A DNA stretch of 64,000 bases from Escherichia phage MLP3: sequence record OK148440; one strand, written 5' to 3'. Positions 3,539-53,919 of the stretch are shown here, one piece after another. Below the pieces are notes generated by a model. It was not told the DNA's origin. It saw only the letters and a list, made by a program, of their open reading frames with translations, and made no database searches. Made by a program: the position numbers and the translations under genes. How positions within the stretch are numbered: the first letter of the stretch is position 1; the number at the start of each line of letters is the position of its first letter.

Positions 3539-3549
3539 TAATGTATATA
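3539..3549 (+). promoter_or_regulatory. TAATGTATATA motif about 35 nt upstream of the 1481-aa gene (candidate phage-specific promoter element)
   Basis: exact motif; recurs upstream of other genes on both strands. Confidence 0.35.
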
Positions 3550-24288: not shown

Positions 24289-24822
24289 TTATACACCCTT
24301 AGATGCAACTACACCATTACTGCCGTTGTATCGACCCTTCACTGCATAAGAGTCATCACCAGCGTGAGAGTGTTCGAACATAACCATTTGACCAACACGC
24401 ATCCCAGCACGAACTCGTAAGCTATGATTATGGGTAACGTTATGAAATTCAAAGGTTAGTTTACTGCTGTTAAACCCTGCATCAGCCCAACCAGCATGGA
24501 GGTGGTTTAAACCACAACGAGCCATTGAGGAGCGAAGTACAAACAGGCTTGAGATGTTATCTGGAAGGTTAAACTCTTCCATTGAGTGCGCTAAGAAGAA
24601 TTGCCCCGGAGTGATAACAATACCATCTTCAGGGATTTTTACTTCTTTCCACTTGAGGTTTTCTTTAGCATCAATGTCAACAATTCCGTCAGCCTGTTCT
24701 TCAACAAGGATAGTATCACCAATACGGATATCCACGCTAGCAGCGTTAACATATTTATGCTCCGCATCTAAAAAGCCATTATCAATAACGCTGTGTAATT
24801 CTTGAGAACCTAAAAGACTCAT
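24289..24822 (-). CDS. dCTP deaminase / dUTPase superfamily protein
   Basis: N-terminal NAASVDIRIGD as in dCTP deaminases; about 177 aa. Confidence 0.6.
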   Translation of the reverse strand: MSLLGSQELHSVIDNGFLDAEHKYVNAASVDIRIGDTILVEEQADGIVDIDAKENLKWKEVKIPEDGIVITPGQFFLAHSMEEFNLPDNISSLFVLRSSMARCGLNHLHAGWADAGFNSSKLTFEFHNVTHNHSLRVRAGMRVGQMVMFEHSHAGDDSYAVKGRYNGSNGVVASKGV

Positions 24823-26255
24823 GAGTTTCTGTTTCCTTGTACAGATGATGCCAAATTATTAATCATGTTACGAGCTGTTTCACGAGATAGTGTAACACCT
24901 GCTAAGTTGTTATGAAGCTCACCAGATAGCTCACGAGCAGCAGCTCGAAGTTCTGTACCAAGTGTAGTATCGGAGTGAGCCAAACCATTACGACGACTAT
25001 AAGGTCGAGGAGCTTCGTTAGCGTCATTAGCCAATGATGCAAAACCAATACGAGCAGCTTCACGAGCCGCTATAGTTGACACTCGATCTTCCGTAGGGGT
25101 TGGCAAATCACCAACTTCTACACGTTCTATATCACCAGCACGTAGACCCTGAGCGACTGAGCTTACTGTTTCCCATGAACGACGAGAACGCTGTAAATCA
25201 CCCATTGACGGAGAAGGAATAGGACGAGCAGTTCCTCCTTGGACATGCCATGTACGAGTATCCATTCCAGAAGAGCGTGCACTACCAAAACTGCCAGTGA
25301 AAGTGTCACGAGGTGCCATTGTAGGAGGAACTGCGAATCTTTCCTGTTGCCAAGAATCGCGTCTGTTAGTTCCCGGAGTCCAAGGTTGTTCAATTGCTTC
25401 AGCACCGATAGTAACTAATCCACTAGACCATTCTGTCTGTAGGTTAACTTCTTCATCAAGATAAATACGACCCCTTTCCTGAGGAATATTTAATGCAACC
25501 TCCATCATCTTCAGGGTATAATGACGACGTTGATTCTGGTATAAGTTTACACCAGCCATAGGTCCAACTAACTCACTGATTGGATAAACTTCTGGCTCAC
25601 CAAAAGCACCCATCGCAAGGTGCATGTATTCGGTAGAACTGCTATAAACTGCAACAGTTGCTTCAGGCCACTTTTTGTAGACATACTTCATTTCACGGCC
25701 TGTCACCACAGGGATAGAATCAGTATATGCCATTGCAAACAAACCTTCGTTTGACACATACATATCATTAAGAGTCATAAATCCTTGACAGATCATAGGG
25801 AAACGACGACTCAAAGTATCCATATCCAAAGGTAGATTAATCATCATCTGGATTTTAACTTGATCAATCTCAATTTCCAGAATCTCTTGGAAAGTGAAAA
25901 GTGATTCAGTATAGGTTGTTCCACTGATAGGCTGAACTAAGCGAGATGTGGTTTGAAGTCCTTTACTTTCTGTCCAAGATAAGAAGTTGTCAAGGAAAAG
26001 TGCAGCATTACCTGCGTTAGCAGGGCTGTTTTCCTGACGAGTGTTCCAACGAAACCCTCCTTGAACTAGGAAGATATCAACATCATTCGGAGTTCGATTT
26101 TGGAAGAACGTATCACGGATAGCACCACCTGCAATAACAGGATAGATGCCATCAGGAACTACGTTGTCTCTGATCAGATTGCGAATCAGATCAAGCCCTA
26201 CGCTGAGGGCTTCTCCTTCTTGAAGGTTTAATTCAGACAATGGAATCTTAATCAT
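24819..26255 (-). CDS. nucleotidyltransferase (pol-beta superfamily, CCA-adding / poly(A) polymerase-like head)
   Basis: IAGGAIRD...DVDIFL matches the GGxVRD...DxD head motif; C-terminal Arg/Ser-rich region; table start TTG at 26270, ATG at 26255. Confidence 0.5.
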   Translation of the reverse strand: MIKIPLSELNLQEGEALSVGLDLIRNLIRDNVVPDGIYPVIAGGAIRDTFFQNRTPNDVDIFLVQGGFRWNTRQENSPANAGNAALFLDNFLSWTESKGLQTTSRLVQPISGTTYTESLFTFQEILEIEIDQVKIQMMINLPLDMDTLSRRFPMICQGFMTLNDMYVSNEGLFAMAYTDSIPVVTGREMKYVYKKWPEATVAVYSSSTEYMHLAMGAFGEPEVYPISELVGPMAGVNLYQNQRRHYTLKMMEVALNIPQERGRIYLDEEVNLQTEWSSGLVTIGAEAIEQPWTPGTNRRDSWQQERFAVPPTMAPRDTFTGSFGSARSSGMDTRTWHVQGGTARPIPSPSMGDLQRSRRSWETVSSVAQGLRAGDIERVEVGDLPTPTEDRVSTIAAREAARIGFASLANDANEAPRPYSRRNGLAHSDTTLGTELRAAARELSGELHNNLAGVTLSRETARNMINNLASSVQGNRNS

Positions 26256-26257
26256 TT

Positions 26258-26806
26258 CTACATTTTCCAATTTAGAGATGGGGGATTCTTATAATCAAAT
26301 CCAGCCATTTGACAAAGACACATGTAAACTTTAACTGTCAAGTTAACGTCTTGCTCACAATAGGCGAACATGTCTTCAGTGAATGCGTCCCATGCCTCCT
26401 CCTGTTCTCCATAATCTCCTTTCAGCTCCCCAAGAAACTCGCCCCATTGTTTGAGGCCGTGACCACGAGGGCCATGTCTAGGGTCGCCTTTGGGGTATTC
26501 TGGACTATCACCAATACGGTCAGGCTTGAGATATCTACTCAGGCACAAAGTATCGAAGACGTTAAAGCGAAAAGGTATCACATGAGAATAAAACTTAAAC
26601 AAAGCAGGAAGGTCAAAATCAATAATATTGTGACCTATTACTACATCAGCTTCTTTCAGTTTGTGTAGTGCTTCTTCAATTTGGTGAGGGCGATACCCCC
26701 ACCGCTCTCCAGATAATACATCAAATATCCAGATACACCAGACATTCTGAATACCATCATAGAGATTATCCCCCTCAATATCAAACGCATACAGTTTCTT
26801 TACCAC
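26258..26806 (-). CDS. DnaQ-like 3'-5' exonuclease (stand-alone proofreading domain)
   Basis: Exo I FDIEGDN, Exo [13 protein letters not shown], Exo III YCEQDV; GTG start with GGGAGG RBS overlapping primase-helicase 3' end. Confidence 0.7.
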
Positions 26807-28625: not shown

Positions 28626-28832
28626 TTAGTAAAACGATCGTATTTCTTCCCACACATCATCTTGCAAGTTTCTAAAACCCTGCAAGGTTTGCTTTGTTCT
28701 GTGAATAAATTCTTCAGAGTGCTTATCAGGTGTGAGCATACTGACAAACTTTTCATAGCGATTAATCTTCCACCGCATCTTCAAGTAGTCAGATTCCAGC
28801 TTTCTTAACTTCTGCCTGTCAGTTACTGTCAT
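28626..28832 (-). CDS. hypothetical small protein (start uncertain)
   Basis: table ORF overlaps neighbour; internal ATG chosen. Confidence 0.3.
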   Translation of the reverse strand: MTVTDRQKLRKLESDYLKMRWKINRYEKFVSMLTPDKHSEEFIHRTKQTLQGFRNLQDDVWEEIRSFY

Positions 28833-29250
28833 CCTTCTCACCTGCCAGATATGCTGTCCAGTCACCAGATTCAACCAGAACATCTTGTTCTTCGTCGATG
28901 TGATAAATCCATGCTTCCACAGTTTCACCGCTATCCAATAATACTGGAATCAGCGTACGCTTGTAAAAGGTGTATGGGTTATCATTACCACGATGACCTT
29001 CTAGACCGTCATACGGACCTTCCAGACCAGCTTGGGTTGTTTCAAAGACTTCTACACGAACAGGCTTACCATTGCTATCATGCTCCAAAGATACACTTGG
29101 GAAGTATGCTGTGCAATACTGATACAGGTTACAGTTGTTGACTGTCCACCCTTCACCAATAGACACACCACCTGCACGAGCGTTGATAGCGTGGTTGTGT
29201 TGACCTTTACGAAGAGAACCATACGTTGCAACTAATACTTTATCAGACAT
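28819..29250 (-). CDS. gamma-glutamyl cyclotransferase-like (GGCT/AIG2 fold)
   Basis: N-terminal VATYGSLRKG; about 140 aa. Confidence 0.6.
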   Translation of the reverse strand: MSDKVLVATYGSLRKGQHNHAINARAGGVSIGEGWTVNNCNLYQYCTAYFPSVSLEHDSNGKPVRVEVFETTQAGLEGPYDGLEGHRGNDNPYTFYKRTLIPVLLDSGETVEAWIYHIDEEQDVLVESGDWTAYLAGEKDDSN

Positions 29251-29254
29251 TACA

Positions 29255-29452
29255 TTACCTTTTGTTTAAGATTTCTTTTGTACAAGAAGTCCCGTTACAC
29301 ACGAGAATTGTTTGAGTTACAGAATCGACAACCGTTACATGACTGCCACATTGAGTTATGATTTGACCTCTCCCTGAATCTTTAGAGATACACTCATCAG
29401 CGGCAATTGCTGATACGCTGAACAAGGAGAGTAGGAGTAGAATCTTTTTCAT
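29255..29452 (-). CDS. small secreted Cys-rich protein
   Basis: signal peptide MKKILLLLSLFSVSAIAA; 4 Cys in mature part. Confidence 0.4.
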   Translation of the reverse strand: MKKILLLLSLFSVSAIAADECISKDSGRGQIITQCGSHVTVVDSVTQTILVCNGTSCTKEILNKR

Positions 29453-29458
29453 GGCAGC

Positions 29459-29875
29459 TTACCAATCATATTCGAAACCAGAATAGCCGGAGAAGAGGAT
29501 TGATCGGATTGTCTTTTCAGGAAATTCTTCAAAACTTTCCTTAATAGCCCCCTTGGTTTCATCAGACACTGATCCTTTTTCACCAAACCAATATTCTCCA
29601 AAAATGTCAGAGAAGGTATAGGTTCGATATTTTTCCAAGTAGTAACAACCTTCCACCGCATCGGTAACCTCCTCACTGATGACACAAGAAGCTACAGGGA
29701 AAAGTGAGCTGTGCTCCATAAACAAACACCAACGATTAAAGAGAGGAATCTCTTCATCTTTCAGAAGACTTTCTAATTCTTCCTTTGCCTCTTTCTTGTG
29801 CTTCTCAAAGAGGTTTTTGGAATACTCTACATCTAAGATATGGCTTTTAAACATATCCAGTTTATTGTCAACCAT
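29459..29875 (-). CDS. hypothetical protein
   Basis: ATG; 138 aa. Confidence 0.45.
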   Translation of the reverse strand: MVDNKLDMFKSHILDVEYSKNLFEKHKKEAKEELESLLKDEEIPLFNRWCLFMEHSSLFPVASCVISEEVTDAVEGCYYLEKYRTYTFSDIFGEYWFGEKGSVSDETKGAIKESFEEFPEKTIRSILFSGYSGFEYDW

Positions 29876-29932
29876 TTTACAACCTCCAGTTAAATTCGAA
29901 CTAGCCCCCTCTTTCGAAGAGGCTAAAGCAAA

Positions 29933-30118
29933 TTATTCTACTTCGAAGTGTTTGATCACACCAGTCAGTACATCAGATTGGAACGTACCTACTAGCTCTG
30001 TACCTCGGAAAAAGTTAACACTTGTTCCAAGTGATTCAAAGCGATCTGCTTGAATGTCCAGAGATTGAATATTTCCTTCTGCTGACATTGTACGAAACAT
30101 GATTGTGTATTTATTCAC
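29933..30118 (-). CDS. hypothetical small protein
   Basis: ORF only. Confidence 0.35.
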   Translation of the reverse strand: MNKYTIMFRTMSAEGNIQSLDIQADRFESLGTSVNFFRGTELVGTFQSDVLTGVIKHFEVE

Positions 30119-30357
30119 AGACTTGTTACTCCCTTATCTGCTTGTGCAATTGCGATGATACGCTCAGCACATTCCATTGAATATTTATCACCTCGTTTGA
30201 GGAAGGTGATGATTGCAGAGAACTGATTACCAATCATTCTCTTATTTGTGATACCGAACTCTTCACAGAGTTGGTTGATAGCTTTACGAGAGCCTACAAT
30301 CAGAGGCTCTTTTTCTTCGGTCATTCCACGGCTGATCAAATCTTCGATAGACAACAT
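30115..30357 (-). CDS. hypothetical small protein
   Basis: ATG. Confidence 0.4.
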   Translation of the reverse strand: MLSIEDLISRGMTEEKEPLIVGSRKAINQLCEEFGITNKRMIGNQFSAIITFLKRGDKYSMECAERIIAIAQADKGVTSL

Positions 30358-30383
30358 TACAAATTCCTTTTTGTTTAATTTAA

Positions 30384-31619
30384 TTACAGAGTTACTGCTA
30401 CTTCGCTACCCTCAACATTGACAGACTCTAACTTGCGAGGGTTATGAATCTGGACTGGATTGACCGGAACGTTCCAACCACTGCGGTAGAAGTTACGACC
30501 ATCACAGAACAGGATGACATTGGCAGACATTGCATTCGGTTGCAGGTTGTTGTGGACATGACGGATATTTGCAATCCAGTAGCCACGAGACAAAGTGTAG
30601 CCAGTAGGTGCATTACGAATAGTTTGAGTATTCATCTGACCTTCCAGTTGCATTTCTTCAGGAACCACATCAACTGAATCAATCGGCTGTGCTACTTGTC
30701 CTTCCAGTGCAAAGTTTTCATCATCAGCACTTTCAATATCATCCACCAACTCACCGTCTCCATCTTCAATCGGAGTCTGGTAAACCACTTTATACTGAGG
30801 AGTATAGAGAGGGTTTTGAGCTTTAACAAACTCAAGAATGTTATGACGGTAGGTATCCAGAGTTGTACCAGTCAGGCCCGGTGCTGTATTAACTTCCAGT
30901 ACCCACGCTTCTTGACCTTTGGTGATAATATCAACTGCACCGAAATCCAGACCCATTGATTCAACAGCTTTCACTGCATTGATCAGAGAGGCGTCATTCG
31001 GAGCATCTGTGAAGGAGCTTGAGTAAACCCAGCCAGTGTGGTGATTACGAATATCTTCACGATAGTTAGGGTCTTCGCGATAACCATTGCGACGAATCTT
31101 CTTCTGAACATAGGTGATTACACCTTTGAACACATGGACACGCCACTCACGACGTGGGCCTTGAATGCCTTTAGTGTACAGTTCAGCTCGACCAAGACCA
31201 TCACCCGGTTCTACAACAACAATGCCCGAACCAGAGTGACCAGTCAGCTCATGGCGCTCATACACAATATTACCAGTGTTTGACCACTCTTGAGCAGTCT
31301 CTTGAGCATCTGTGTATTCCACAGTTTTAACACCTGCTTGGTCCATCACGCTGAAAGCACGACGTTTGTTCGCTGCCATATGTAAGGCTGCGGTACGGTT
31401 AAGGACGGTTGCAGAACCAAAGAATGATTCAGGATAGCGACGGTTCCCGTAGTTAACAACCACATCACCTTCACGAGAACGCCAGCGGCTATTCTCTGAA
31501 AGAAGACCCATCACGTTAGCATTGATGCGTTCATCACGGATAGTATCACTGATAGCAGATACTAGAGCGTTAACAGAATCAGACGGGCCATACGGAAGAA
31601 CACGGATACGAGTAGTCAT
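30384..31619 (-). CDS. ATP-grasp family ligase with C-terminal extension
   Basis: GAVDIITKGQEAWVLEVNTAPGL matches ATP-grasp C-terminal catalytic motif (RimK-like). Confidence 0.7.
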   Translation of the reverse strand: MTTRIRVLPYGPSDSVNALVSAISDTIRDERINANVMGLLSENSRWRSREGDVVVNYGNRRYPESFFGSATVLNRTAALHMAANKRRAFSVMDQAGVKTVEYTDAQETAQEWSNTGNIVYERHELTGHSGSGIVVVEPGDGLGRAELYTKGIQGPRREWRVHVFKGVITYVQKKIRRNGYREDPNYREDIRNHHTGWVYSSSFTDAPNDASLINAVKAVESMGLDFGAVDIITKGQEAWVLEVNTAPGLTGTTLDTYRHNILEFVKAQNPLYTPQYKVVYQTPIEDGDGELVDDIESADDENFALEGQVAQPIDSVDVVPEEMQLEGQMNTQTIRNAPTGYTLSRGYWIANIRHVHNNLQPNAMSANVILFCDGRNFYRSGWNVPVNPVQIHNPRKLESVNVEGSEVAVTL

Positions 31620-31621
31620 TT

Positions 31622-31852
31622 TTAGATACCTTTTAGTTTAAGAATTTCGTTACGACAGGATTGAATTTTAGCTTCGATTGCCCAATACTCAGCGAACATT
31701 TCGTCTTCTTGGTCATCGCTTGGAGAGTCGATTAAGTTAAAAGCAAACGGATACAGCTTTCGCTGCTCCGTTACCAGTTGTTGAAGTCGGAGTTGTTGAT
31801 ACTCCAGCATTGTCAGGTGAGGCTTAGCTCCCTTGCTTGACATGAGGCTCAA
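31622..31852 (-). CDS. hypothetical small protein (TTG or internal ATG start)
   Basis: ORF only. Confidence 0.35.
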   Translation of the reverse strand: MSLMSSKGAKPHLTMLEYQQLRLQQLVTEQRKLYPFAFNLIDSPSDDQEDEMFAEYWAIEAKIQSCRNEILKLKGI

Positions 31853-32057
31853 CTTTAATCCCCTTCATTTTAACATAGTCAGCCAACACGTTATTGATAA
31901 CGGTTGGAAAAGGGATTTCTACTGGAGAGTCAACCAGCTTCCCAATACCTTCTTGCATCCACTTCTGGATTGCTCGGAGGTTATCACATCCTGTGCTTGT
32001 CATCGGAATACGGCGGGTAGTTACCACGTTATCCAACATCAGTTTACGAACTTCCAT
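31824..32057 (-). CDS. hypothetical small protein
   Basis: ATG. Confidence 0.4.
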   Translation of the reverse strand: MEVRKLMLDNVVTTRRIPMTSTGCDNLRAIQKWMQEGIGKLVDSPVEIPFPTVINNVLADYVKMKGIKVEPHVKQGS

Positions 32058-32068
32058 AACTATACCTC

Positions 32069-34102
32069 TTAGTGTTTACCTTTACAGTAATCTGAATTAC
32101 AGATCACCCTGTTTTCTTTGTTCAGTGAGCAAGTTTCTGCATCACGCCACGGAATTTGTTTATAACAAACTGCACAAAACCCAATTGAAGTCCAGAGGGC
32201 TTTTGTAAACTCAGCTGTTCGTTGTCCATCGTAACTGACAACTGTTTTTCGGAGAGAGGTTGACTTTTCTGGAAATGTCTCCGCTTTCTCAGCGGGTACC
32301 TCCTTTGGGGCATTCTTTGGACCATAAACAGAGATGGCATAAGTATCACCACCACGTTTTTCCAAATACGAATTAGGAACATCTGCAAGTGTGATGTCCC
32401 CTGAACGTTTTGCTGAGCTGACCATTACAATCATACGGCTAAGCATACGTTCATCAACACGAACAGCTACTTCAGGACGACGTGGGTTGGTTGTGTCCAC
32501 TGCTTTAGTCCAAATATAACCCTCAGACAGCGTAACATTCTTTACTTTGTCTTTGATTTCTTTGGAGCAGATATAACAAACATCTTCACCACGAAGTTTA
32601 CTCATTTCGTTGTCAAACTCGAAATCAGTCTTGACTTCACCACAGATAGCACATACACCCAAAGGCACATCTTCTTCCTCTTCAGAGGTTTTAGATAACG
32701 CTTCGAAGCATTCTGGATGCCAGTATGCCTGATAAGCAAACACAGCCTTACGAGCATCTTTCCAGTCAATGTGCTTATCACAACCACCACAGTCACCATG
32801 AGAGTGAGATTCCCAGAACTTACGAGTGACTTCTACACCATTCTTAGTGATGAAGGAGTCCTCTGCATCAAAAGGGATATCATCATCAAAATCAGCAGTA
32901 GTGCTTTGAGGCTCCTTATCTGTAGCATCAACAAACAGCCCTGAAGTTAGTACGAGGCGAATCATACTGTCCACTTCGGAGATACAAGCAATCGTCCCGC
33001 GATATACTACCTTTGGGTTTTCAAGAGCCTTAAGATATTCATCTTTGGCTACGTTGTGAACATCCCCTTCGACATACTCTTGAGCTTTATCATCGTAGAT
33101 GTAACCAACCATCTTACCACGATCTGTGTTGTTATAAGCATGGAACTCGTGAGGAATAATATCCACACGACCATCACGACGATAAGGAAGACCACGATCG
33201 GCAGCCAGTTTGTTCTGGTCTTCAATCGCTTTACGACGACGAATGTCTCCGCTTGTCACGCCGGGCTTGTCGTCTTTGTTTCCGTAAATGTCGCTTGTGC
33301 TGCTGCTTGATTTGTTTGTCTGTTGGTTCTGATAAAGAGAGGAGTTCGAGTAATAGCCGCCCCAGCGACTCGTTACCGTAAAAACCGGAAGCGTGTGCTC
33401 CACCTCTTGAACCAGAGTCATACGACTGTTAGACACATCAAAGATATACTCAGTTCCCACTTTACATTCGAAGTGGTCATTGATACGGTTCTTATGGGAC
33501 TTAGAACGCTCTAAAATCCACATAAGCATAGCTTCTTCAGAAGCTCCAAACCAATCCAAACCACAGCGGGCTAGGTGGAAAGGACGCTCATCATTACGGA
33601 TAATGTGAAGTGTGTTGTCTTTAGCATCATGCCAAATCAAAGTGAATGCACCATCCAGTTTTTGGATAGTCTCTGCTGCTCCAATGGTGTTAATTGAGTG
33701 GCAGATGTTTTCACTATCAACTTCGAAACGCTTACTGTCAGGAAGGAGATCTTGATCTAACAGGGTTCCATTATGAACCAGAGTAATATCCCCGTGAGTA
33801 AATGGGTGAGCATTTCGAGCATTGACAGCCCCACGAGTGGCATGTCGGCTGTGACCAACAATCCACGAAGGAGGAACTACGTAGTTCGTAAGCCCTTTGG
33901 TAATATTTGTATATTCTGTCTGGAGCATAAAAGCATAAGAAGGAAGAGCTTCTTTATAAGAGAAGACTTGCTTTTCACCTTTACGCTGACCAAACACACC
34001 AGTTGAGTGCTGTCCACGGAAAACACCAGCATACAGAAGTTGGTTGAAAATGTCCAAATCTGCTGAGGTCATGTTGCCGCCAGCTAATACGATACCACAA
34101 AT
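32069..34102 (-). CDS. class-II (Ntn) glutamine amidotransferase-like protein with C-terminal Cys-rich zinc-ribbon region; probable non-ATG (AUU) start
   Basis: CGIVLAGG...VFRGQHSTGVFG matches GlmS/PurF N-terminus; the Cys codon lies 9 codons upstream of the first ATG, after an in-frame TAG, with AGGTGG 8 nt before ATT. Confidence 0.6.
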   Translation of the reverse strand: MCGIVLAGGNMTSADLDIFNQLLYAGVFRGQHSTGVFGQRKGEKQVFSYKEALPSYAFMLQTEYTNITKGLTNYVVPPSWIVGHSRHATRGAVNARNAHPFTHGDITLVHNGTLLDQDLLPDSKRFEVDSENICHSINTIGAAETIQKLDGAFTLIWHDAKDNTLHIIRNDERPFHLARCGLDWFGASEEAMLMWILERSKSHKNRINDHFECKVGTEYIFDVSNSRMTLVQEVEHTLPVFTVTSRWGGYYSNSSLYQNQQTNKSSSSTSDIYGNKDDKPGVTSGDIRRRKAIEDQNKLAADRGLPYRRDGRVDIIPHEFHAYNNTDRGKMVGYIYDDKAQEYVEGDVHNVAKDEYLKALENPKVVYRGTIACISEVDSMIRLVLTSGLFVDATDKEPQSTTADFDDDIPFDAEDSFITKNGVEVTRKFWESHSHGDCGGCDKHIDWKDARKAVFAYQAYWHPECFEALSKTSEEEEDVPLGVCAICGEVKTDFEFDNEMSKLRGEDVCYICSKEIKDKVKNVTLSEGYIWTKAVDTTNPRRPEVAVRVDERMLSRMIVMVSSAKRSGDITLADVPNSYLEKRGGDTYAISVYGPKNAPKEVPAEKAETFPEKSTSLRKTVVSYDGQRTAEFTKALWTSIGFCAVCYKQIPWRDAETCSLNKENRVICNSDYCKGKH

Positions 34103-34179
34103 TTTCTAATCCACCTGAAGGGTAAACCCTTTCATCTAATTAACCTTTAAATGCGCCCTGTATAAGAGCGCCCGTTGTG

Positions 34180-35280
34180 TTACAGCAGTCGTTCTAATTG
34201 CATTTCCAGATGGTCTGGAATATAACCAGTGACGTTATCATCACTGCTACCTGATTCACGCATCAATGCAAACATGTGACGAATTTCACGAACCGTTGCG
34301 ATTCGAGTGCTTTCAATCTGAGGGGTGTAGTAGGTCATGATCTCTTCGTAGACACTGTTGGCATTACCGCGCACATATCCCAAGAAACCATAGAAGTCAT
34401 TCATATCACGTAAGTTGATAAGGACTTCACCATCAGGGCCAGTCTGTTGCACACGAACACGACCAACCAAAGTTACAGATTGCTCACGACAGAAGAGAAT
34501 ATCACGAGCAAGACGATACCCTTCAGTGAGATCACTGTCTCTTGGAGTATAGTCTAGGGGTAGATGTTGAATCATAGGAGCGAAGCGCAGCTCATTCAAC
34601 TTCTCAACATAAGCTTCATTGTCTAAATCTGCATATTCAACAGCAAGTTTCTTGAGAACCAAGAAGCGGTTGACCAGATTCAGAAGTTGGCTCTTTTTCC
34701 ACTTCGGCTCTGAGATACGGAACTCAACAGAACCAAATTGAGATAGAGGCAAAAGATTAAGGGAGGTATATTTATCCCAGCTATTAACAAGAGAGTGGAA
34801 GAAAGCTTCCCCGTCTCGGTTGAACGCTGACGAAGCATTCATAACTTGTGCTTGAACGACAGCAAAAGCTGGACAGAAGTTGCTACGATAGCGATGGTAT
34901 CCAGAACATTTGAACATCATCTTTTCATAGAACGTCCATCCAAGAATAACTTTCTTAAGGATATTACTATCAGCGTCACGCATATCCATATGAACGTGAG
35001 TGGAGCAGCGCCAAGTTCCCTCGGCTCCAGAATCCTGTACTGCTTCACTCAGATTGTTAATAGCACGAAGTAATTCTTCACCGTTGTAAGGTCGTGCACA
35101 TACTAATTCACAACCATCACGAAGAGAGCCATCTTCAGTACAAACCCACATATCAGCGTCAATGTCAGTTGTACCTTCGACTTCTAACTCAATACCAACA
35201 CCACACTGAAAAGCAATACTTGGATGCGGTTCAGATAAGCGAGGGTTACGGTATCCAAAAACTTGTGCTACGGTTGTCAT
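34180..35280 (-). CDS. amidoligase (glutamine-synthetase-like COOH-NH2 ligase family)
   Basis: VGIELEVEG and STHVHMD motifs. Confidence 0.55.
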   Translation of the reverse strand: MTTVAQVFGYRNPRLSEPHPSIAFQCGVGIELEVEGTTDIDADMWVCTEDGSLRDGCELVCARPYNGEELLRAINNLSEAVQDSGAEGTWRCSTHVHMDMRDADSNILKKVILGWTFYEKMMFKCSGYHRYRSNFCPAFAVVQAQVMNASSAFNRDGEAFFHSLVNSWDKYTSLNLLPLSQFGSVEFRISEPKWKKSQLLNLVNRFLVLKKLAVEYADLDNEAYVEKLNELRFAPMIQHLPLDYTPRDSDLTEGYRLARDILFCREQSVTLVGRVRVQQTGPDGEVLINLRDMNDFYGFLGYVRGNANSVYEEIMTYYTPQIESTRIATVREIRHMFALMRESGSSDDNVTGYIPDHLEMQLERLL

Positions 35281-35903
35281 AATGATTCCACCAACTCTAC
35301 ATTATATGATGACAGGTCTGAAGAAATATGCTTGAACTTCTCCAGAAGGTTTAAAGATTGACGACCATTGTCGCCATAACCAGCTTCAAGAAGCACGTTT
35401 CCAACGTAAGCCCCTTTGTAATAAACTTTTCCATCGACAGGATTGATATAGATGAAACGAGTAACCAACCCTTCAAACTCTGGATTAAACAGGTTATACA
35501 CCAAATCACCCGGAATCGAACGTCCGAGAGAAGGTGGAGTACCACGAAGTTTATTCCCCATCAAGCCTTTAGCTCGCTGACGAACAGGGTTGATATGGGT
35601 CCAGCTCACCATGTTATTACCATGCTGAAGGTATCCTACATCTGGAGACTCCAGAATGAGGCTGTGATCAAACACTGGGATATTACTAACAATCTGACGT
35701 TCAAACTGACCTTCAGAGTTTTTAGTCCAGCGTTCCGCCTCAAACACTAAAGACATTTCAGCGTCGTGTGAGTAGTCGTCAATATCAAAGTTACCTTGCT
35801 GACGAACATCAAGCACATATAGAGGGAGGTTTTTACCATCAGGTGATCGCTGAGCAATCCATGTTCCACAATAATAGTGTTGAAAATCTCTTAACAAGCT
35901 CAC
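35277..35903 (-). CDS. hypothetical protein in ligase cluster
   Basis: GTG start with AAGGTGA RBS; 208 aa. Confidence 0.45.
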   Translation of the reverse strand: MSLLRDFQHYYCGTWIAQRSPDGKNLPLYVLDVRQQGNFDIDDYSHDAEMSLVFEAERWTKNSEGQFERQIVSNIPVFDHSLILESPDVGYLQHGNNMVSWTHINPVRQRAKGLMGNKLRGTPPSLGRSIPGDLVYNLFNPEFEGLVTRFIYINPVDGKVYYKGAYVGNVLLEAGYGDNGRQSLNLLEKFKHISSDLSSYNVELVESL

Positions 35904-35912
35904 AATATCACC

Positions 35913-36719
35913 TTATACAATCTGGAGTTTAGAGGAGAATTTATCCGCTTCTTTAACATCGTTACTGTTGATGATGTTGTGAAGCTTTTCAATTGGAAGG
36001 CGAGAGTGAAGTGACATCAATACTTCCATATCACAGCCTTGAACAACCTTATCAACTTGCTCATAAACAAACTTGCGGGTTGACTTCTCGCCAATCCAGA
36101 AGTTAGAAAGAGAACGATATTCAATACCGTAATCTTTGTAGCGAATGGCAGAAGCCTTTCCGTATAACTCTTTACGACGAGTATCTTTATCCATGATCAC
36201 AGCTGGCAAGGACAGGAAGTAATCACACAACACACCCAACATCATTTGAGTCTGACGACTAATTTCCAGCGTACCAGTGACGCCAAGGTGAACATGACCG
36301 CCAGCAGTACGCAGACCTTTGTCTGTCGCTACTGGAGATGGGTTTTTCTGACCAGTGAAGGCGTTGAAATCAGGAGTACAACCAAATACAAAGGCTGACG
36401 GATGGAAAGATTCCAGCTCTTCTGAAGTGAACACATGAGAGCTAATCCCAAGTGCTGCCTCCATGCCACGTTCATTGAGAACTTTGTTAGTCAGATCAAT
36501 ACCACGCTGAATGTTATCATTAAACGCTTCAAACCCTTTCTGTGGGTTAATATCGAACTCGGCCAGAACGTTGTCTTCTTGAAGACGAACATCAGGGGCC
36601 AGATCAATTTTGTTGTCTTTAGAGCAGCCCAGCTTACCAGCCACAGAGGTGATAATACCAGAAGCAGTACGAACAAACATTTCAGGGTCAGAACCAATAA
36701 GGAAAGCACGCTTAGTCAT
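35913..36719 (-). CDS. amidoligase-like protein (second copy, divergent)
   Basis: FLIGSDPEMF and AGGHVHLGV motifs; ATG at 36719 with GGAG RBS (table start GTG at 36764). Confidence 0.45.
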   Translation of the reverse strand: MTKRAFLIGSDPEMFVRTASGIITSVAGKLGCSKDNKIDLAPDVRLQEDNVLAEFDINPQKGFEAFNDNIQRGIDLTNKVLNERGMEAALGISSHVFTSEELESFHPSAFVFGCTPDFNAFTGQKNPSPVATDKGLRTAGGHVHLGVTGTLEISRQTQMMLGVLCDYFLSLPAVIMDKDTRRKELYGKASAIRYKDYGIEYRSLSNFWIGEKSTRKFVYEQVDKVVQGCDMEVLMSLHSRLPIEKLHNIINSNDVKEADKFSSKLQIV

Positions 36720-37662
36720 TGTAATACTCCACGAGTTCATCAAAAAGGGAAACAACACGAGCACCAGCTTCTTCTGGTGTCATTGAGGAAGGTACTGCTT
36801 GCATCAGTCGTTCGATAAAACTGCGAACAGTAATTCTGTCCATACGCTGATCTAATACTTCTCTCTTGTGACCTGCACAAGTTGACCAGAGACGCAACCA
36901 CTCACTCATACTCTCGTAATGGTCAGGGTCTTGGTCACGACGACGTGCCATACGACGGAGAACTCCATCATTGTGGTTTCGTACATAACCATCTCGGTTA
37001 TCATCAACACCGAACACATTCTGAACCCATACGTTTTCAGAAAATTCATCAGTGGTGCAAATTAGTGGCAGAAATGCAATTGCACTCATGTCACCATCAA
37101 AATAAGTCGCTGCTGACTCGTCAGTTGAGTCTACGTCATTACTATAACACCAGCGACCAAAGAAGTTACGACTTAAACCAGCTAAGCGTAGAGCTAAACC
37201 GATTCGTTGTCGCTTAAGCAACTCTTCCTTGTCTTGTACGCCTTCCTGAAGGAACTCCATTCCATTAAAATCACCATCCAAATAGCTACGGATGGTCATT
37301 AGTCCAGTAAACACCTTGTCTGCTGGATGGTTTCGAAGGTTCACGGCAATGGAGTTCACCGAAGTGACAGAGAACATATCTTTATAGCAAGACATTGAGT
37401 TAAAAATATCTGTTGCTTCAACTAAAGCTCTTTCGATATCTTTAGCTGGCACGCCATAAAAATTGTGAGGCCAGAAGTTAATAACTTCAATTTCTGAAGT
37501 TCTATCACGAAGGCTTGTTCGGTTACGACTTTCACCGTTAATGTCTGTAACAGAATACATGTGCATACAGTTAAAAGTACCAAAGCAAGCTCTTCCTTTG
37601 AACACTGACTCACCGAAATCCTCTGCCGGTGTTACCGGAGCAATCGATGCGGAGATTGACAT
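36712..37662 (-). CDS. hypothetical protein in ligase cluster
   Basis: ATG; 316 aa. Confidence 0.45.
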   Translation of the reverse strand: MSISASIAPVTPAEDFGESVFKGRACFGTFNCMHMYSVTDINGESRNRTSLRDRTSEIEVINFWPHNFYGVPAKDIERALVEATDIFNSMSCYKDMFSVTSVNSIAVNLRNHPADKVFTGLMTIRSYLDGDFNGMEFLQEGVQDKEELLKRQRIGLALRLAGLSRNFFGRWCYSNDVDSTDESAATYFDGDMSAIAFLPLICTTDEFSENVWVQNVFGVDDNRDGYVRNHNDGVLRRMARRRDQDPDHYESMSEWLRLWSTCAGHKREVLDQRMDRITVRSFIERLMQAVPSSMTPEEAGARVVSLFDELVEYYND

Positions 37663-37670
37663 ATTCGCCT

Positions 37671-38888
37671 CTATTTATTAAAGAATAATTTTTCCATAAT
37701 GGTTTCCCACTCTTCTGAGGGGAGGGTTGAGAACCCGTTTCCGTGAAGCCTGTTTGTCATGCAACTAATAATATTGTACATGTTGTAGCTTCGGGTGGAT
37801 TCTGTTCCATTGTTCCAGTTATAACCGAAAACAATTTTATCGAAGGAGGTTTTATCCGTAGTTACTTCTCGGATGAACTCAACCAAGAGCGATTTCTCTG
37901 TGATGACCGCACGTTCACCATCTGGCAGATTACAATACTGAGGAAGAAGGATTGGTAAGAACATCGAATTGTTCACTCGACAATCACGAACACCTTCACT
38001 GCGATAGATTAGGCTTGAGAAGTCTTCATCACGCAGGTGTCCTTCACCTTCAGTGTATTCACACTGTCGCCATTTGGTCTGGCGAGGTTCAATCATTGTA
38101 CTGCCAACGCCTACTGTATACAGAGACGCTTGGAAGATACACGAGTCGTAATCATTCCCTGTTAAAGCAACTTGCTCATTGCCGAACACATCCACTGAAG
38201 AGTTAATCAGTCGGCTGAATGCAAGAGAGGCTAGTGGAGACCAACCTTTCTTATACATCTTGTTCAGCATTTCATACACAGCAGATTTTTCATCATCTGT
38301 ATAGAATGTACGATTCAGCATCAGATAGAACAGAGCGCGATCAGCAGGACAACCATCAGTACAAACACCCATGAATCCTACTTCATGCCATACCAGACAT
38401 GAGTCAGAATCTTTATCCATGAATGCTTCAAAGGCTTCCATTACAGCCCTGTCAGTAACATCAGGACGGTTGTTTTCTTCTGCCCATGTTTCTACATGAG
38501 AAGGAGGACGAGGGTCTCCATTCTCCACCCCTTCGCGGAAATATTGAGTGGTAATAGGCTTTTTATCACCATAACGTTTTACACCATAAGCGGGAAGGTG
38601 TGTACCAGAGTTCCAGATGTACTTAATTTCGGACATAGGCATCATGTTTTCGAGAACGTTCTCTTCAGCAGTGCCTTGACGAACCATCATATTTTCACTC
38701 CACACCTTAATGCGGATATTCCAGCCGTAGTTGCTGTCATACGTGTTATAATAATCAGGATCACCATCTTCATCTTCATCATAATCACCACCCTGATAGT
38801 AACCTGCTTTCAGGAAACCATAACAAGGAGGCCAGACGGTTACAACATCATCTGATTCTTTCCAGCTTTGAAGTGTTACAGGGAACAT
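37671..38888 (-). CDS. hypothetical protein in ligase cluster, acidic N-terminal segment
   Basis: ATG; 405 aa. Confidence 0.45.
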   Translation of the reverse strand: MFPVTLQSWKESDDVVTVWPPCYGFLKAGYYQGGDYDEDEDGDPDYYNTYDSNYGWNIRIKVWSENMMVRQGTAEENVLENMMPMSEIKYIWNSGTHLPAYGVKRYGDKKPITTQYFREGVENGDPRPPSHVETWAEENNRPDVTDRAVMEAFEAFMDKDSDSCLVWHEVGFMGVCTDGCPADRALFYLMLNRTFYTDDEKSAVYEMLNKMYKKGWSPLASLAFSRLINSSVDVFGNEQVALTGNDYDSCIFQASLYTVGVGSTMIEPRQTKWRQCEYTEGEGHLRDEDFSSLIYRSEGVRDCRVNNSMFLPILLPQYCNLPDGERAVITEKSLLVEFIREVTTDKTSFDKIVFGYNWNNGTESTRSYNMYNIISCMTNRLHGNGFSTLPSEEWETIMEKLFFNK

Positions 38889-39262: not shown

Positions 39263-39529
39263 AACTTCTCCTGTTTGTCACATTGATTGGTTAGCCAGTT
39301 GTAAGACCCACTGTTGTTCTTGCTTAACTCGCAAGATGCAAAAGAGTACATCCTGACAAACCCCACAGTGGCTAAGCAAATAAAGATTGCTGCCAATAAG
39401 AATTTAGCTTTCAACTTATTATCCATACAACCTCTTCTTTGAGCTTAAAAAAGGACTCTCCTAAGAGAGCCAAGCTTTAAGGCCAATTAAATAGATATCA
39501 CCCAATATCTGTGGATAACCTGCTCTTAA

Positions 39530-51779: not shown

Positions 51780-52639
51780 TTGATAGCCTCACAATTAGCA
51801 AAGTTAATAAAAGTTGTATAGACTGCTATACCGTCATTGTAGGCAGTGGTAGCGAGTACAGTTTCGCTAACATCGCCATAACTAACGAGATTAGTTACAA
51901 ACTGTAATTTCTCTTTCTCAATCTTCTGATATAGAGAATAAGTTACCATGTCATGATCACTATCAGCACGCTTTAAATTAATAACCGATTGAACGCCAGA
52001 CTTATCACCTAAGGGGGTAAGAGTGACACGCACACTACTAACACTGACGTCATTGAAACGAACACGCCAAAAGGCATCATTTCCATCACTTCCAACGTCA
52101 CGGCAAGCCATATCAGGAGCGTTTTTAAACGTGCTAACAAAGGATTGCAGACCAGTAGAAAGAGAGTCTTTTGCCTGAACATTGGTAGAGATAGCACTAA
52201 CACCGATAGCTGCAACCAGTGCATAAGAAGCCAGATTAACAGACTTCATAATCTTACTTGCAATAGAAGGCTTGCTATCTTTCTTCTTCTTGTTCTGAAT
52301 AGCTTCAACCATAGCAGACAAGCGGGATAATACTGCGTTAGCATCGCGGCAAGATTCAGGCCAATCCTTTTGAGTCCAACTATCTAAATTAGCCTGAATG
52401 TAACAGTTGATAGCATCTTGCATATCGGTAAAACCATTCTCTTTCATCGACTCTTTATCTTCACACTGTAAGGCGTTCGCGGTGGAATCAATGATGAGGC
52501 AAGCCAGAATGACAGAGTTTTTGAAGCTGGTACGAGCTTGCTGGTTATCCATCCATTGAGAAGGCACACCAACGGAAAGACCTAACGAAGAAAGTACATC
52601 ATTTGCTTGATTCAAGTATTTAATTGCTAACTTTGACAT
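51776..52639 (-). CDS. hypothetical protein with internal signal-peptide-like segment
   Basis: ATG; MKSVNLASYALVAAIGVSAISTNVQA at residues 131-156 could mark a second start. Confidence 0.45.
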   Translation of the reverse strand: MSKLAIKYLNQANDVLSSLGLSVGVPSQWMDNQQARTSFKNSVILACLIIDSTANALQCEDKESMKENGFTDMQDAINCYIQANLDSWTQKDWPESCRDANAVLSRLSAMVEAIQNKKKKDSKPSIASKIMKSVNLASYALVAAIGVSAISTNVQAKDSLSTGLQSFVSTFKNAPDMACRDVGSDGNDAFWRVRFNDVSVSSVRVTLTPLGDKSGVQSVINLKRADSDHDMVTYSLYQKIEKEKLQFVTNLVSYGDVSETVLATTAYNDGIAVYTTFINFANCEAIK

Positions 52640-52683
52640 TTCCTTATCCTTTCGGTTGATGTGAATTAAAAACTACGATTGCA

Positions 52684-52711
52684 ACTATATATTAAAGGAA
52701 AAACCTGTCAA
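52684..52711 (-). promoter_or_regulatory. sigma70-like promoter (TTGACA-16 nt-TATAGT) upstream of 51776-52639 gene
   Basis: minus-strand hexamers about 45 nt before ATG. Confidence 0.4.
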
Positions 52712-52830
52712 CCACTTATTTTCAAACTATTTCATAACTCACTGAATATAAAAGGAATTTAATTTACTAAACTTTCTTGTTCAGAGATACAGCTTACCAA
52801 ATAGATGTTATTTTATAACACTTACAGAAC

Positions 52831-53919
52831 GGGTAGCAGACCAACGGGATAGATAGATGGGTAAGACGTGCCGCATAGGTTAGCCAATGGGTAAGAAGCC
52901 TAACGAGGAAGGGGAAACGGGTAGGATATAATGTAAGTTAGTTACAGTTAACAGGTCAGACCATGCGGTAATAAATTACCAGTCAATTCGCTACTATCGT
53001 AGCTCATATCAAATTCCTACTCATCAAAGATAAAAGAAAAAGAAAAAAGAAACGCTGAAAAAGAAAAGAATAAAAGAAAGAATAAAAATAATAACTAAAG
53101 TAAACAACTACCAGTCTAAACATACATACATCAATAATCCACTCATGAATAATCACATAAGTTATTACATTCAAACTATGGGGGATGGTCATCAATGGTA
53201 TAGTTTACATAGGTTATCATTAATGTTCTTACTATTAATACCGGTTAGTTATAGTCTTCTATTAGTATGCCTGTACAGTGCTAGCCTTTCATCCCTTCTC
53301 AACATGAGTAAGAGAAATACGGGTAGGAAATCACTGGTTAGATATACATGGGTAAATAATCAATGTGTAATATCAATGGGTAGGTTATTTATGGGTAGGT
53401 ATGCCACTGAACGCAGGTAGGGCAAGGCTTAGAGCTTAAAGGCTGATTGATTTCCTAAAGGCAATTGCATTGGTAATAACCCTTTTTTAAATGAGGACTC
53501 CCCCCTTTTAGGAAACGCGCTCGGAGCGGCTAGGTCCATCCGGTCAAATTGAAATTTTAAACTCTTATATATAAGAATAAGGAACTATTTTATGTGGAAG
53601 ATTAAGTTACTAATTAAGCAATTCAAATGTCAACACGAATACTACCCGATACGGATATCGAGAGGAGATGAACGGTTACACGCTTATTACAAGAGTACAT
53701 GGAGATGTGCAGACTGTGGTAAGGTTAGGAATAGTAAATGGGTGGATAGACCATAGAGAGTATGGGGTGGCCTTAACATGACATGGCCTTAATGGGTAAG
53801 CACTACTTCGTAGTGACGATGCCTTAATGTGGGGTAGCCTTTATGGAGTCCCCTTTACATCAGCGTACACGGGTTAGTACACGGGTGGGCCTTTAGATGA
53901 GTACGCCTTTATGGGTTGA
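52831..53919 (+). repeat. iteron-like array of at least 15 GGGTAGG / ATGGGTARG repeats in divergent intergenic region
   Basis: repeats all in plus orientation; proximal copies extend to GCCTTWATGGGT. Confidence 0.5.
53592..53756 (+). CDS. small zinc-ribbon-like protein (54 aa), below the ORF-track cutoff
   Basis: my translation MWKIKLLIKQFKCQHEYY...CADCGKV; AAGGAA RBS. Confidence 0.35.
   Translation: MWKIKLLIKQFKCQHEYYPIRISRGDERLHAYYKSTWRCADCGKVRNSKWVDRP

Follow-up and report, generated by a model that had tools for sequence, protein, structure and literature searches.

What is made by a ~10-kb run of peptide-ligase-type genes in a lytic podophage, and what does it act on? The question is raised by positions 28819 to 38888 of a 64,000-nucleotide stretch of Escherichia phage MLP3 (sequence record OK148440), which is referred to here as the window. 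An earlier reading from the letters alone (the original prediction) described these genes as a toolkit for making, amidating and recycling gamma-glutamyl or peptide bonds. The cluster is a phiEco32-type phage amidoligase module, and the locus itself is already known and annotated: its genes match phi32_77 to phi32_88 of phiEco32 one-to-one, and several near-identical GenBank records already name them "ATP-grasp enzyme", "amidoligase enzyme", "COOH.NH2 ligase", "glutamine amidotransferase", and "gamma-glutamyl cyclotransferase". The region shares 98.6% identity over its full length with Escherichia phage vB_EcoP_HC-25922 and 98% with IME267, 4E8, and Bas87. It is matched by 98 phage records, all from podophages of Escherichia or Shigella in the phiEco32 group (Kuravirus and its relatives, in Gordonclarkvirinae), and the window is that of a Kuravirus.

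The only functional proposals for the module were predicted computationally by Iyer et al. (2009), as that paper is cited in PMC11945000 and PMC10580990. They comprise modification of the cell wall, against superinfection or for lysis, and the making of secondary metabolites or peptide tags. In papers from 2023 and 2025, the function is described as still to be explored, and a search of the literature in full text found no experimentally shown product or target, in agreement with what the original prediction had said of comparable neighbourhoods.

We consider it very probable that the module follows one general chemistry, in which ligases join carboxylates to amines, a glutamine amidotransferase (GATase) donates ammonia, a gamma-glutamyl group is removed, and three further proteins (X1, X2, and X3) take accessory roles. 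The nature of the acceptor is a separate matter and is weighed in the last section.

Gene content and enzymes of the module

Phyletic counts were made by tblastn against 50,697 phage records. The carboxylate-amine (COOH-NH2) ligase type 2 was found in 310 records (Pseudomonas 121, Escherichia 93), Amidoligase_2 in 293 (Pseudomonas 120, Escherichia 92), and the ATP-grasp ligase in 315 (Pseudomonas 120, Escherichia 93), each of the three also occurring in Proteus (8), Salmonella (7), Cronobacter (6), and Shigella (3) records. The three ligases are found in nearly identical sets of phages, and the gamma-glutamyl cyclotransferase (GGCT) tracks the enterobacterial and Aeromonas groups. The annotated loci of Salmonella phage 7-11, Pseudomonas phages TL and UFV-P2, Vibrio phages Vp_R1 and IME234, and Klebsiella phage Asterion have the same gene content, and also the same gene order except in IME234 and Asterion, where GATase is found upstream of the type-2 ligase. 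IMG/VR was scanned with a type-2 ligase alignment, which returned at least 573 contigs, and 80 loci were fetched from these. Altogether, 95 sources were annotated with iterated local hidden Markov models, and the 44 distinct loci with complete flanks were used for counts. The five-gene core of type-2 ligase, X3, Amidoligase_2, GATase, and ATP-grasp ligase is present in 43 of these 44, almost always in that order. By near-equal phyletic counts and by synteny, the genes are strictly co-conserved, which bears out their description as one cluster. Among 100,044 prokaryotic species genomes (one genome for each species), only 19 loci were found, all on short, mis-binned contigs of metagenome-assembled genomes (MAGs) or contaminants that carry the phage module, and the module is therefore regarded as phage-restricted.

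The step that removes the gamma-glutamyl group would be carried out by different enzymes in different phages. The cluster of ~50-kb Vibrio and Klebsiella phages has no GGCT and contains a Peptidase_C26 of the gamma-glutamyl hydrolase/PuuD type. Among the 44 complete loci, 22 have GGCT alone, 19 have Peptidase_C26 alone, two have both, and one has neither (Fisher p = 4e-9, for loci that are not independent), and at least one of the two enzymes is found in 23 of 24 lineages (ligase clusters at 60% identity). The two are near-exclusive alternatives. Because two unrelated folds that cut gamma-glutamyl amides replace each other, we take cleavage of a gamma-glutamyl-amine bond to be integral to the module, and this exchange is the strongest clue to the chemistry, namely that a gamma-glutamyl-amine link is made and later removed. 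The alternation as an observation is probably not new, since the Pfam text for Amidoligase_2 mentions an association with a GATase-like thiol peptidase or an AIG2 protein. A reduced variant was seen on two MAG contigs (L110 and L111), which encode a 553-aa protein, a type-2 ligase, a Peptidase_C26, a GGACT protein, and a second Peptidase_C26, with no recognisable X3, Amidoligase_2, class-II GATase, or ATP-grasp ligase.

Profile searches support each of the enzyme folds that had been read from the letters, with their catalytic residues kept. Conservation was assessed over ~75 distinct versions of each enzyme (35 for GGCT), and residues are numbered as in this phage. GGCT matches Pfam GGACT (PF06094; 59 bits against a cut-off of 22.8, E = 8.9e-16) and phrog_2520 (E = 4e-41). 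Its YGSLRKG motif lies at residues 10–16, and Y10, G11, L13, E84 (the catalytic Glu), G85, Y96, Y116, and W131 are conserved. It falls in the GGACT subfamily, whose substrates we take to be of the gamma-glutamylamine type. What had been called a second, divergent amidoligase-like protein is a COOH-NH2 ligase type 2 by PF14395 (34.2 bits against a cut-off of 25, E = 2e-8; phrog_3815, E = 1.7e-112), a family entitled "Phage phiEco32-like COOH.NH2 ligase-type 2" in Pfam. At least 90% conserved in 75 distinct versions of this ligase are D11, E13, E48, D49, E54, C114, R137, H142, H144, D166, D177, R182, K195, E200, Y201, and R202. Amidoligase_2 (PF12224, E = 3.1e-8; phrog_7469, E = 4e-142) has E31, E33, E35, D50, S52, R54, E58, H95, H97, E119, R130, E186, and R188 conserved to the same degree in 78 versions. 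Both of these ligases, which resemble glutamine synthetase (GS), keep acidic clusters together with HxH and ExR. No sequence relatives were found in the PDB for either amidoligase or for GGCT.

The closest sequence relatives of the ATP-grasp ligase are the RimK/LysX/MptN alpha-L-glutamate ligases, with which it shares the ATP- and Mg-binding residues. In Pfam, its RimK match (PF08443) falls below the cut-off (19.6 bits against 21, E = 7e-4); in other libraries, it matches phrog_2599 (E = 3e-170), MptN (3.5e-9, the best NCBIfam match), and rimK_fam (1e-6), and its best PDB match is RimK (E = 0.003). It differs from these ligases by scores far below cut-off, the full-length protein reaching 28.4 bits against the curated rimK_fam cut-off of 143, and by an extra C-terminal domain of ~140 aa. 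Residues K85, R122, G130, G132, E158, R160, K174, D230, E242, and N244 are at least 90% conserved in 75 versions. The GenBank label "ribosomal protein S6 glutaminyl transferase" was given by homology only. A fusion search detected no additional Pfam domain in the longer amidoligase, ATP-grasp, and GATase forms of phages 7-11 and Vp_R1, and hhalign found no relation between the C-termini of ATP-grasp or GATase and X1, X2, or X3.

The GATase gene starts at an ATT codon (34102–34100, minus strand), located 8 nt downstream of AGGTGG and followed by TGT, so that the protein begins M-C-G-I-V. The nucleophile Cys2 is exposed at the N-terminus because of this start. Bas87 and phiEco32 annotate the gene at equal length, and the extent of 32069–34102 in the original prediction was correct. 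Open reading frame (ORF) calling with standard starts gives 32069–34072 only; standard callers thus shorten GATase and drop its catalytic Cys. An N-terminus of start-Cys-G-[ILV] was found in 61 distinct GATase genes of the module and was missing from 11 further matches. Seven of the 61 have an ATT-Cys start, in unrelated lineages and each with a good Shine-Dalgarno sequence, including those of Klebsiella phage Asterion (L006) and of loci L069, L075, and L091. The ATT start may be a way of holding GATase translation low.

GATase matches GATase_6 (53.8 bits against a cut-off of 27, E = 2.6e-14) and phrog_4736 (E = 3.8e-184) and keeps R29, H84, R86, T89, N111-G112 (the oxyanion hole), and D129 in addition to Cys2. 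Its glutaminase domain occupies approximately residues 2–225, and the Cys-rich zinc-ribbon tail noticed earlier corresponds to C-terminal zinc-ribbon/LIM-like modules, with a weak LIM match. No known fused synthase domain (GlmS SIS, AsnB, PurF, or GltS) was found past residue ~225 in Pfam or NCBIfam, and the GenBank name "glucosamine-6-phosphate aminotransferase" is therefore unfounded. In Pseudomonas phage TL (L003; 10508–11609), GenBank gives GATase as two misc_features, its N- and C-terminal parts, and not as a coding sequence; this gene may be split, frameshifted, or carrying a sequence error. Amidoligase_2 and GATase are adjacent in the main architecture, and directed evolution of a Pseudomonas Bruynoghevirus gave two evolved lines, each with missense mutations in both amidoligase and amidotransferase (PMC11450229). 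Adjacency and these parallel mutations suggest that the two are a working pair. Judged by the conserved residues, the five enzymes of the module are catalytically intact and appear to be active, and all module enzymes are under purifying selection.

The accessory proteins X1, X2, and X3

The three proteins of 208, 316, and 405 aa that had been left unassigned are real, and they can now be defined as a pair of paralogues (X2 and X1) and a double beta-barrel protein (X3); that they serve as substrate, carrier, or adaptor is inferred. All three are well-folded, non-enzyme-like, and phage-only, they appear to be obligatory partners of the enzymes, and overlapping stops and starts lock them into the operon.

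X1 and X2 have no match in Pfam, NCBIfam, PADLOC, or PDB sequences and no fold match in the PDB, and the PADLOC search of the unassigned proteins for defence systems was likewise negative. Homologues of X1 form 40 clusters, with a lowest identity of 26%; those of X2 form 17 clusters by word search, with 22 representatives among 1.84 billion proteins. Invariant residues of X1 include M1, F2, C22-Y23-G24-F25, D183-R184, L189-M190, R193, W273, Q275, H284, and R286, and conserved residues of X2 are C26-F27-G28, P113-A114-D115, L121-M122, R125, W212, Q214, G225-Y226, and R228-N229. Three motifs are common to both proteins in the same order: an N-terminal C-[FY]-G, then P-A-D-[RK]-x4-L-M-x2-R, and then W-x-Q...G-[HY]-x-R-[DN]. 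By hhalign, X1 (E = 8e-5) and X2 (E = 0.005) each align with Xbig, a subfamily present in single copy (20 loci), and these alignments cover exactly the R-x-C-F-[GA]-x-x-N and PAD[RK] motifs. The Cys motif is present in 100% of X1, X2, and LUZ24-like X1 counterparts, compared with 2.9% of control ORFs. Because of the ordered motifs, the profile links through Xbig, and structure matches in BFVD, we place X1 and X2 as paralogues in one family that is confined to phages and lacks a solved structural relative. BLASTP of X1 and X2 against their positional counterparts in Salmonella phage 7-11 and Pseudomonas phage TL returned nothing significant. The LUZ24-like versions are tied to X1 and X2 by the C[FY]G motif and position alone (Foldseek E = 1.9), and a strict combined-motif search found no X-like protein in the C26-type environmental loci.

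The AlphaFold2 model of X1 is confident and places C22 just before a helix at residues 23–26. The C-Y-G-F of X1 resembles the papain motif C-W-A-F. A papain- or transglutaminase-like thiol enzyme was considered for X1 and X2 and rejected: the Cys at the helix start fits, but there is no fold match and no family-wide His. Ntn hydrolases and Hint domains were rejected as well, since the Cys lies on a helix and not on a strand and no fold match was found.

X3 consists of two small beta-barrels and a conserved basic, disordered linking loop (P106-V-R108-Q-R-A-K112-G113-L). Its gene always lies between those of the two GS-like ligases, starts with GTG, and has a stop that overlaps the Amidoligase_2 start. 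Only R108 and G168 are conserved in 73 versions. The loop lysine was considered as a conserved acceptor and rejected, no Lys being universally kept in these versions.

Identity to phiEco32 is 93% for the primase/helicase and lowest among the module genes for X1, the fastest-evolving of them (Table 1). Such fast divergence of accessory proteins, X1 above all, would be typical of a specificity or interface component that faces a variable partner.

Gene layout, small genes, and transcription signals

All nine ORFs of the original prediction are present at their predicted coordinates on the minus strand, and its list of parts omitted four more: the DUF7195 protein, the phi32_81 and phi32_78 homologues, and the gp79 homologue. 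Module genes are tightly packed or overlapping. Gene families, order, and phage subfamily are equal to those of the phiEco32-type amidoligase neighbourhood, to which this isolate adds an insertion encoding a DUF7020 protein and a secreted peptide.

Table 1. Genes of the amidoligase cluster, with positions in the window, by decreasing coordinate.
Gene product	Coordinates	Strand	Family or basis	Identity to phiEco32 (%)
X1, 405 aa, phi32_88 homologue	37671..38888	-	phage-only protein	42
X2, 316 aa, phi32_87 homologue	36712..37662	-	paralogue of X1	54.5
COOH-NH2 ligase type 2, 268 aa, phi32_86 homologue; glutamine-synthetase/GCS2-like carboxylate-amine ligase	35913..36719	-	PF14395, phrog_3815	80
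X3, 208 aa, phi32_85 homologue	35277..35903	-	double small beta-barrel	63
Amidoligase_2, 366 aa, phi32_84 homologue; GS-like carboxylate-amine ligase	34180..35280	-	PF12224, phrog_7469	70
Class-II (Ntn) glutamine amidotransferase (GATase), 677 aa	32069..34102	-	GATase_6, phrog_4736	66
DUF7195 protein, 77 aa, phi32_82 homologue	31824..32057	-	PF23825	84
Small ORF, 73 aa, phi32_81 homologue	31622..31843	-	Bas87 annotation and phiEco32 identity	63
ATP-grasp ligase, RimK/MptN type, 411 aa, phi32_80 homologue	30384..31619	-	phrog_2599, NCBIfam MptN	60
gp79 homologue, 80 aa	30115..30357	-	identity to phi32_79	76
Small ORF, 61 aa, phi32_78 homologue	29933..30118	-	identity to phiEco32	38
DUF7020 protein	29459..29875	-	PF22885, E = 2e-21; variable insertion	
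Cys-rich signal-peptide peptide, 65 aa	29255..29452	-	variable insertion	
GGACT/AIG2-like gamma-glutamyl(amine) cyclotransferase (GGCT), 143 aa, phi32_77 homologue	28819..29250	-	PF06094, phrog_2520	65

The DUF7195 protein (E = 3.3e-19) could be aligned with 7-11 gp101, Vp_R1 gp066, and TL gp19, and its position between GATase and the ATP-grasp ligase is kept in the Kuravirus, 7-11-like, Vp_R1, and LUZ24-like groups. The 73-aa ORF has no family match. The gp79 homologue, whose counterpart lies at 52601–52849 of the phiEco32 record, is missing from the 7-11 and LUZ24-like versions of the cluster. [quoted passage not shown] The gene is embedded in the cluster and stands outside the ligase chemistry, and because it sits inside, the cluster can be dated to the middle phase of infection.

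The DUF7020 protein and the four-Cys, 65-aa peptide form an insertion of ~620 bp that is present in HC-25922, IME267, 4E8, and ECBP2 and missing from Bas87, SU7, EK010, and phiEco32. It looks like a moron, and because close relatives lack it, we regard it as variable cargo outside the module. The secreted Cys-rich peptide that had been listed among the cluster genes is a real ORF with a signal-peptide-like N-terminus, but for the same reason is not part of the module.

A scan for sigma70 promoters found fewer sites than in shuffled controls. Exact copies of TAATGTATA, the promoter consensus of the phiEco32 phage sigma factor, are located at 3539 (+), 12659 (-), 12730 (+), 19231 (-), and 62333 (+). 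No such gp36-type promoter was found within or just upstream of the cluster; the interval from 19.3 to 52 kb holds no copy, so the ligase genes lack a promoter of this kind for themselves. At 39454–39471 (minus strand), ~570 bp upstream of X1, there is a hairpin that resembles a terminator (GGCTCTCTTAGGAGAGTC, with a T run after it), and it could be the border between the early genes and the transcription unit of the ligase module. In Klebsiella phage Asterion (5542–11060), six small interspersed ORFs all end in L-E-N-K, which is probably a repeated junction of stop, ribosome site, and start and not a functional peptide motif.

Candidate products and acceptors

In the mechanism we favour, the module proteins would act jointly in the cytoplasm as a multi-protein ligase complex, before or during DNA replication (middle phase). 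Each of the three ligases would use ATP to form an acyl-phosphate on a carboxylate, which would then be joined to an amine, and their joint product would be a short chain that contains glutamate and has a gamma-glutamyl-amine bond. GATase would hydrolyse glutamine and supply one of the ligases with ammonia, Amidoligase_2 next to it being the likeliest recipient, and this ligase would cap a carboxylate as an amide. The GGACT enzyme, or Peptidase_C26 elsewhere, would later cut the gamma-glutamyl-amine bond and release 5-oxoproline or glutamate; since it is cut in this way, the gamma-glutamyl group could be read as a removable handle or a reversible mark. X3 would be an accessory subunit whose conserved arginine loop reaches into the two GS-like ligases or lies between them, and the fast-evolving X1/X2 pair would provide recognition of the acceptor or target.

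We suggest tentatively, and with somewhat less than even confidence, that the acceptor is a macromolecule, most likely the amine of a protein, which could be a host target or the X proteins themselves. This is judged from context: X1 to X3 are structured proteins found only in phages, the divergence from phiEco32 follows a gradient, the cyclotransferase belongs to the gamma-glutamylamine type, and the nearest relatives of the ATP-grasp ligase are RimK and MptN. These last two enzymes add Glu to a protein tail or a cofactor. Several points weigh against this suggestion and the mechanism around it. None of the small ORFs was found to encode a tag or carrier of the Pup or LysW kind, with a conserved acidic C-terminus, and X3 is not an obvious Lys-carrier because it has no universally conserved Lys. 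X1 and X2 could be enzymes, regulators, or immunity proteins instead of adaptors, and the GATase domain might itself be an amidohydrolase. A GATase, three ligases, and a gamma-glutamyl cleaver are no less typical of pathways to small molecules, as in the glutathione cycle, PuuA/PuuD, EgtA/EgtC, and butirosin.

A more specific possibility, that the module is a self-contained phage protein-conjugation system and a functional analogue of pupylation or tubulin glutamylation, is unlikely on present evidence. In such a system, the GS-fold ligases would mark lysines of a host or phage protein with a gamma-glutamyl group or a short amidated peptide, the RimK-type enzyme would lengthen this mark, and GGACT or C26 would erase it, with the fast-evolving, phage-only X1 and X2 and their conserved Cys as a target-recognition or thiol-transfer component. 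It would be like pupylation (PafA/Dop, Pup) in that GS-fold ligases could link a Glu gamma-carboxylate to a protein lysine and in that an eraser activity is included. It differs from pupylation in having no match to the Pup-ligase family in Pfam, no Pup-like ORF, and no link to a proteasome, and none of the small ORFs of the module has a conserved Gly-Gly-Gln/Glu end.

That the module instead makes or remodels a free gamma-glutamyl compound, with X1 to X3 as regulators or scaffolds, we also consider improbable. Candidates for such a soluble metabolite are a glutathione-like or amidated peptide thiol and a gamma-glutamyl polyamine with a PuuA/PuuD-like handle, from which GGCT or C26 would recycle the gamma-glutamyl group. 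A GS-like ligase together with an ATP-grasp enzyme and GGCT follows the logic of the glutathione cycle, and a GS-like ligase with a C26 hydrolase resembles PuuA/PuuD. In these routes and in EgtA/EgtC, a GS-like ligase makes a gamma-glutamyl amide that is removed by a C26 enzyme, a class-II GATase-like amidohydrolase, or GGCT, and the alternation of GGCT and C26 fits this use of a handle. The weak EgtC match of the GATase domain, the small ORFs without a tag- or carrier-like protein, and the best NCBIfam match of the ATP-grasp ligase to MptN, a cofactor glutamate ligase, point the same way. The phage proteins are nevertheless not members of these families at the sequence level, and the X proteins have no counterpart there. 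In the butirosin side-chain pathway, the ATP-grasp enzyme BtrJ and the gamma-glutamyl cyclotransferase BtrG act on a carrier-bound chain, with gamma-glutamyl as a protecting group. The module is similar in pairing an ATP-grasp ligase with an AIG2/GGCT-type enzyme that later removes gamma-glutamyl from an amine, and differs in having two GS-like ligases and a GATase and no acyl-carrier protein, pyridoxal phosphate (PLP) enzyme, or acyltransferase. Three phage-only structured proteins, including the fastest-evolving genes, are hard to fit into a simple metabolic route. No transporter, PLP, redox, or tailoring enzyme was found beside the ligases in the 95 loci, and the module is phage-restricted, whereas a borrowed host pathway should have cellular relatives.

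The cell-wall proposal of 2009, in which the stem peptide of cytoplasmic peptidoglycan precursors would be given unusual amide links and amidation to block superinfection or to ready the wall for lysis, appears more doubtful still. A gamma-glutamyl bond is present in peptidoglycan, which GATase-dependent enzymes amidate, and the ATP-grasp ligase has weak, sub-threshold matches to D-Ala-D-Ala ligase (Dala_Dala_lig_C, 14.2 bits against a cut-off of 24). The best matches of this ligase, however, are RimK and MptN and not Ddl. Unlike the peptidoglycan stem-peptide enzymes, the module has no Mur-ligase match; no Mur-ligase, transpeptidase, flippase, or envelope-targeted component was found in the 95 loci, and no core protein has a signal peptide. 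In its favour, it is the one hypothesis that has been published (Iyer et al., 2009, as cited in PMC11945000 and PMC10580990).

A hypermodification of DNA or nucleotides, which would give a base an amino-acid- or amide-containing group and explain the resistance of Gordonclarkvirinae to restriction-modification (RM) systems, is highly improbable. The BASEL study calls these phages "remarkably resistant to RM systems", with no known modification pathway. In the window, sites for EcoRI (9), EcoRV (24), EcoKI (7), and EcoP1 (102) are not avoided, and the published resistance of the subfamily to these enzymes therefore needs an explanation other than site avoidance. A primase/helicase gene lies within 10 kb of the module in 64 of the 95 sources, and in viromes, thymidine-hypermodification genes occur together with amidoligase and GATase domains (PMC8989533). 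Against this, two LUZ24-like phages with the same module have DNA that is cut, by 11 of 16 enzymes in U17 and by RsaI, HpaI, EcoRV, SmaI, and HaeIII in tf. When the cluster and ten ORFs of the neighbouring replication region were scanned with Pfam, this gave ThyX and dCTP deaminase and none of the hallmarks of thymidine or cytidine hypermodification clusters (dUMP/dCMP hydroxymethylase, 5-HMUDK, aGPT-Pplase, DpdA, or TET/JBP). The strong avoidance of CCWGG, PstI, SacI, and BamHI sites also argues that the DNA is exposed to restriction. Observed against expected counts in the whole window are 1 and 78 for CCWGG, 0 and 17 for PstI, 0 and 17 for SacI, 0 and 9.5 for BamHI, 1 and 9.7 for NcoI, and 133 and 254 for GATC. 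The original statement that the cluster does not serve DNA metabolism is plausible, with support that is indirect.

Two neighbouring genes touch on the same subject. At 24289–26270 (minus strand), a dCTP deaminase gene (PF22769, E = 1.6e-34) is followed by that of a 483-aa protein labelled nucleotidyltransferase in relatives and without a Pfam match, and the BASEL authors suspect this pair of a role in DNA modification. Vibrio phage IME234 has a tRNA-nucleotidyltransferase-like gene near its module.

The X1/X2 family, the X3 fold, the GGCT/C26 exchange, and a sharper list of parts were worked out here and bear on a 15-year-old question, that of the product of the module. Present in ~0.6% of deposited phage genomes as well as in the IMG/VR contigs, the module is among the most widespread unsolved enzyme sets of lytic podophages, carried by phages of E. 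coli and Salmonella, by Pseudomonas aeruginosa therapy phages, and by Vibrio and marine phages. Its product, once identified, would be either a new metabolite of phage origin or a new modification of proteins. If the module were indeed a conjugation system, it would represent a new post-translational modification with which the phage takes over its host or counters host defence.

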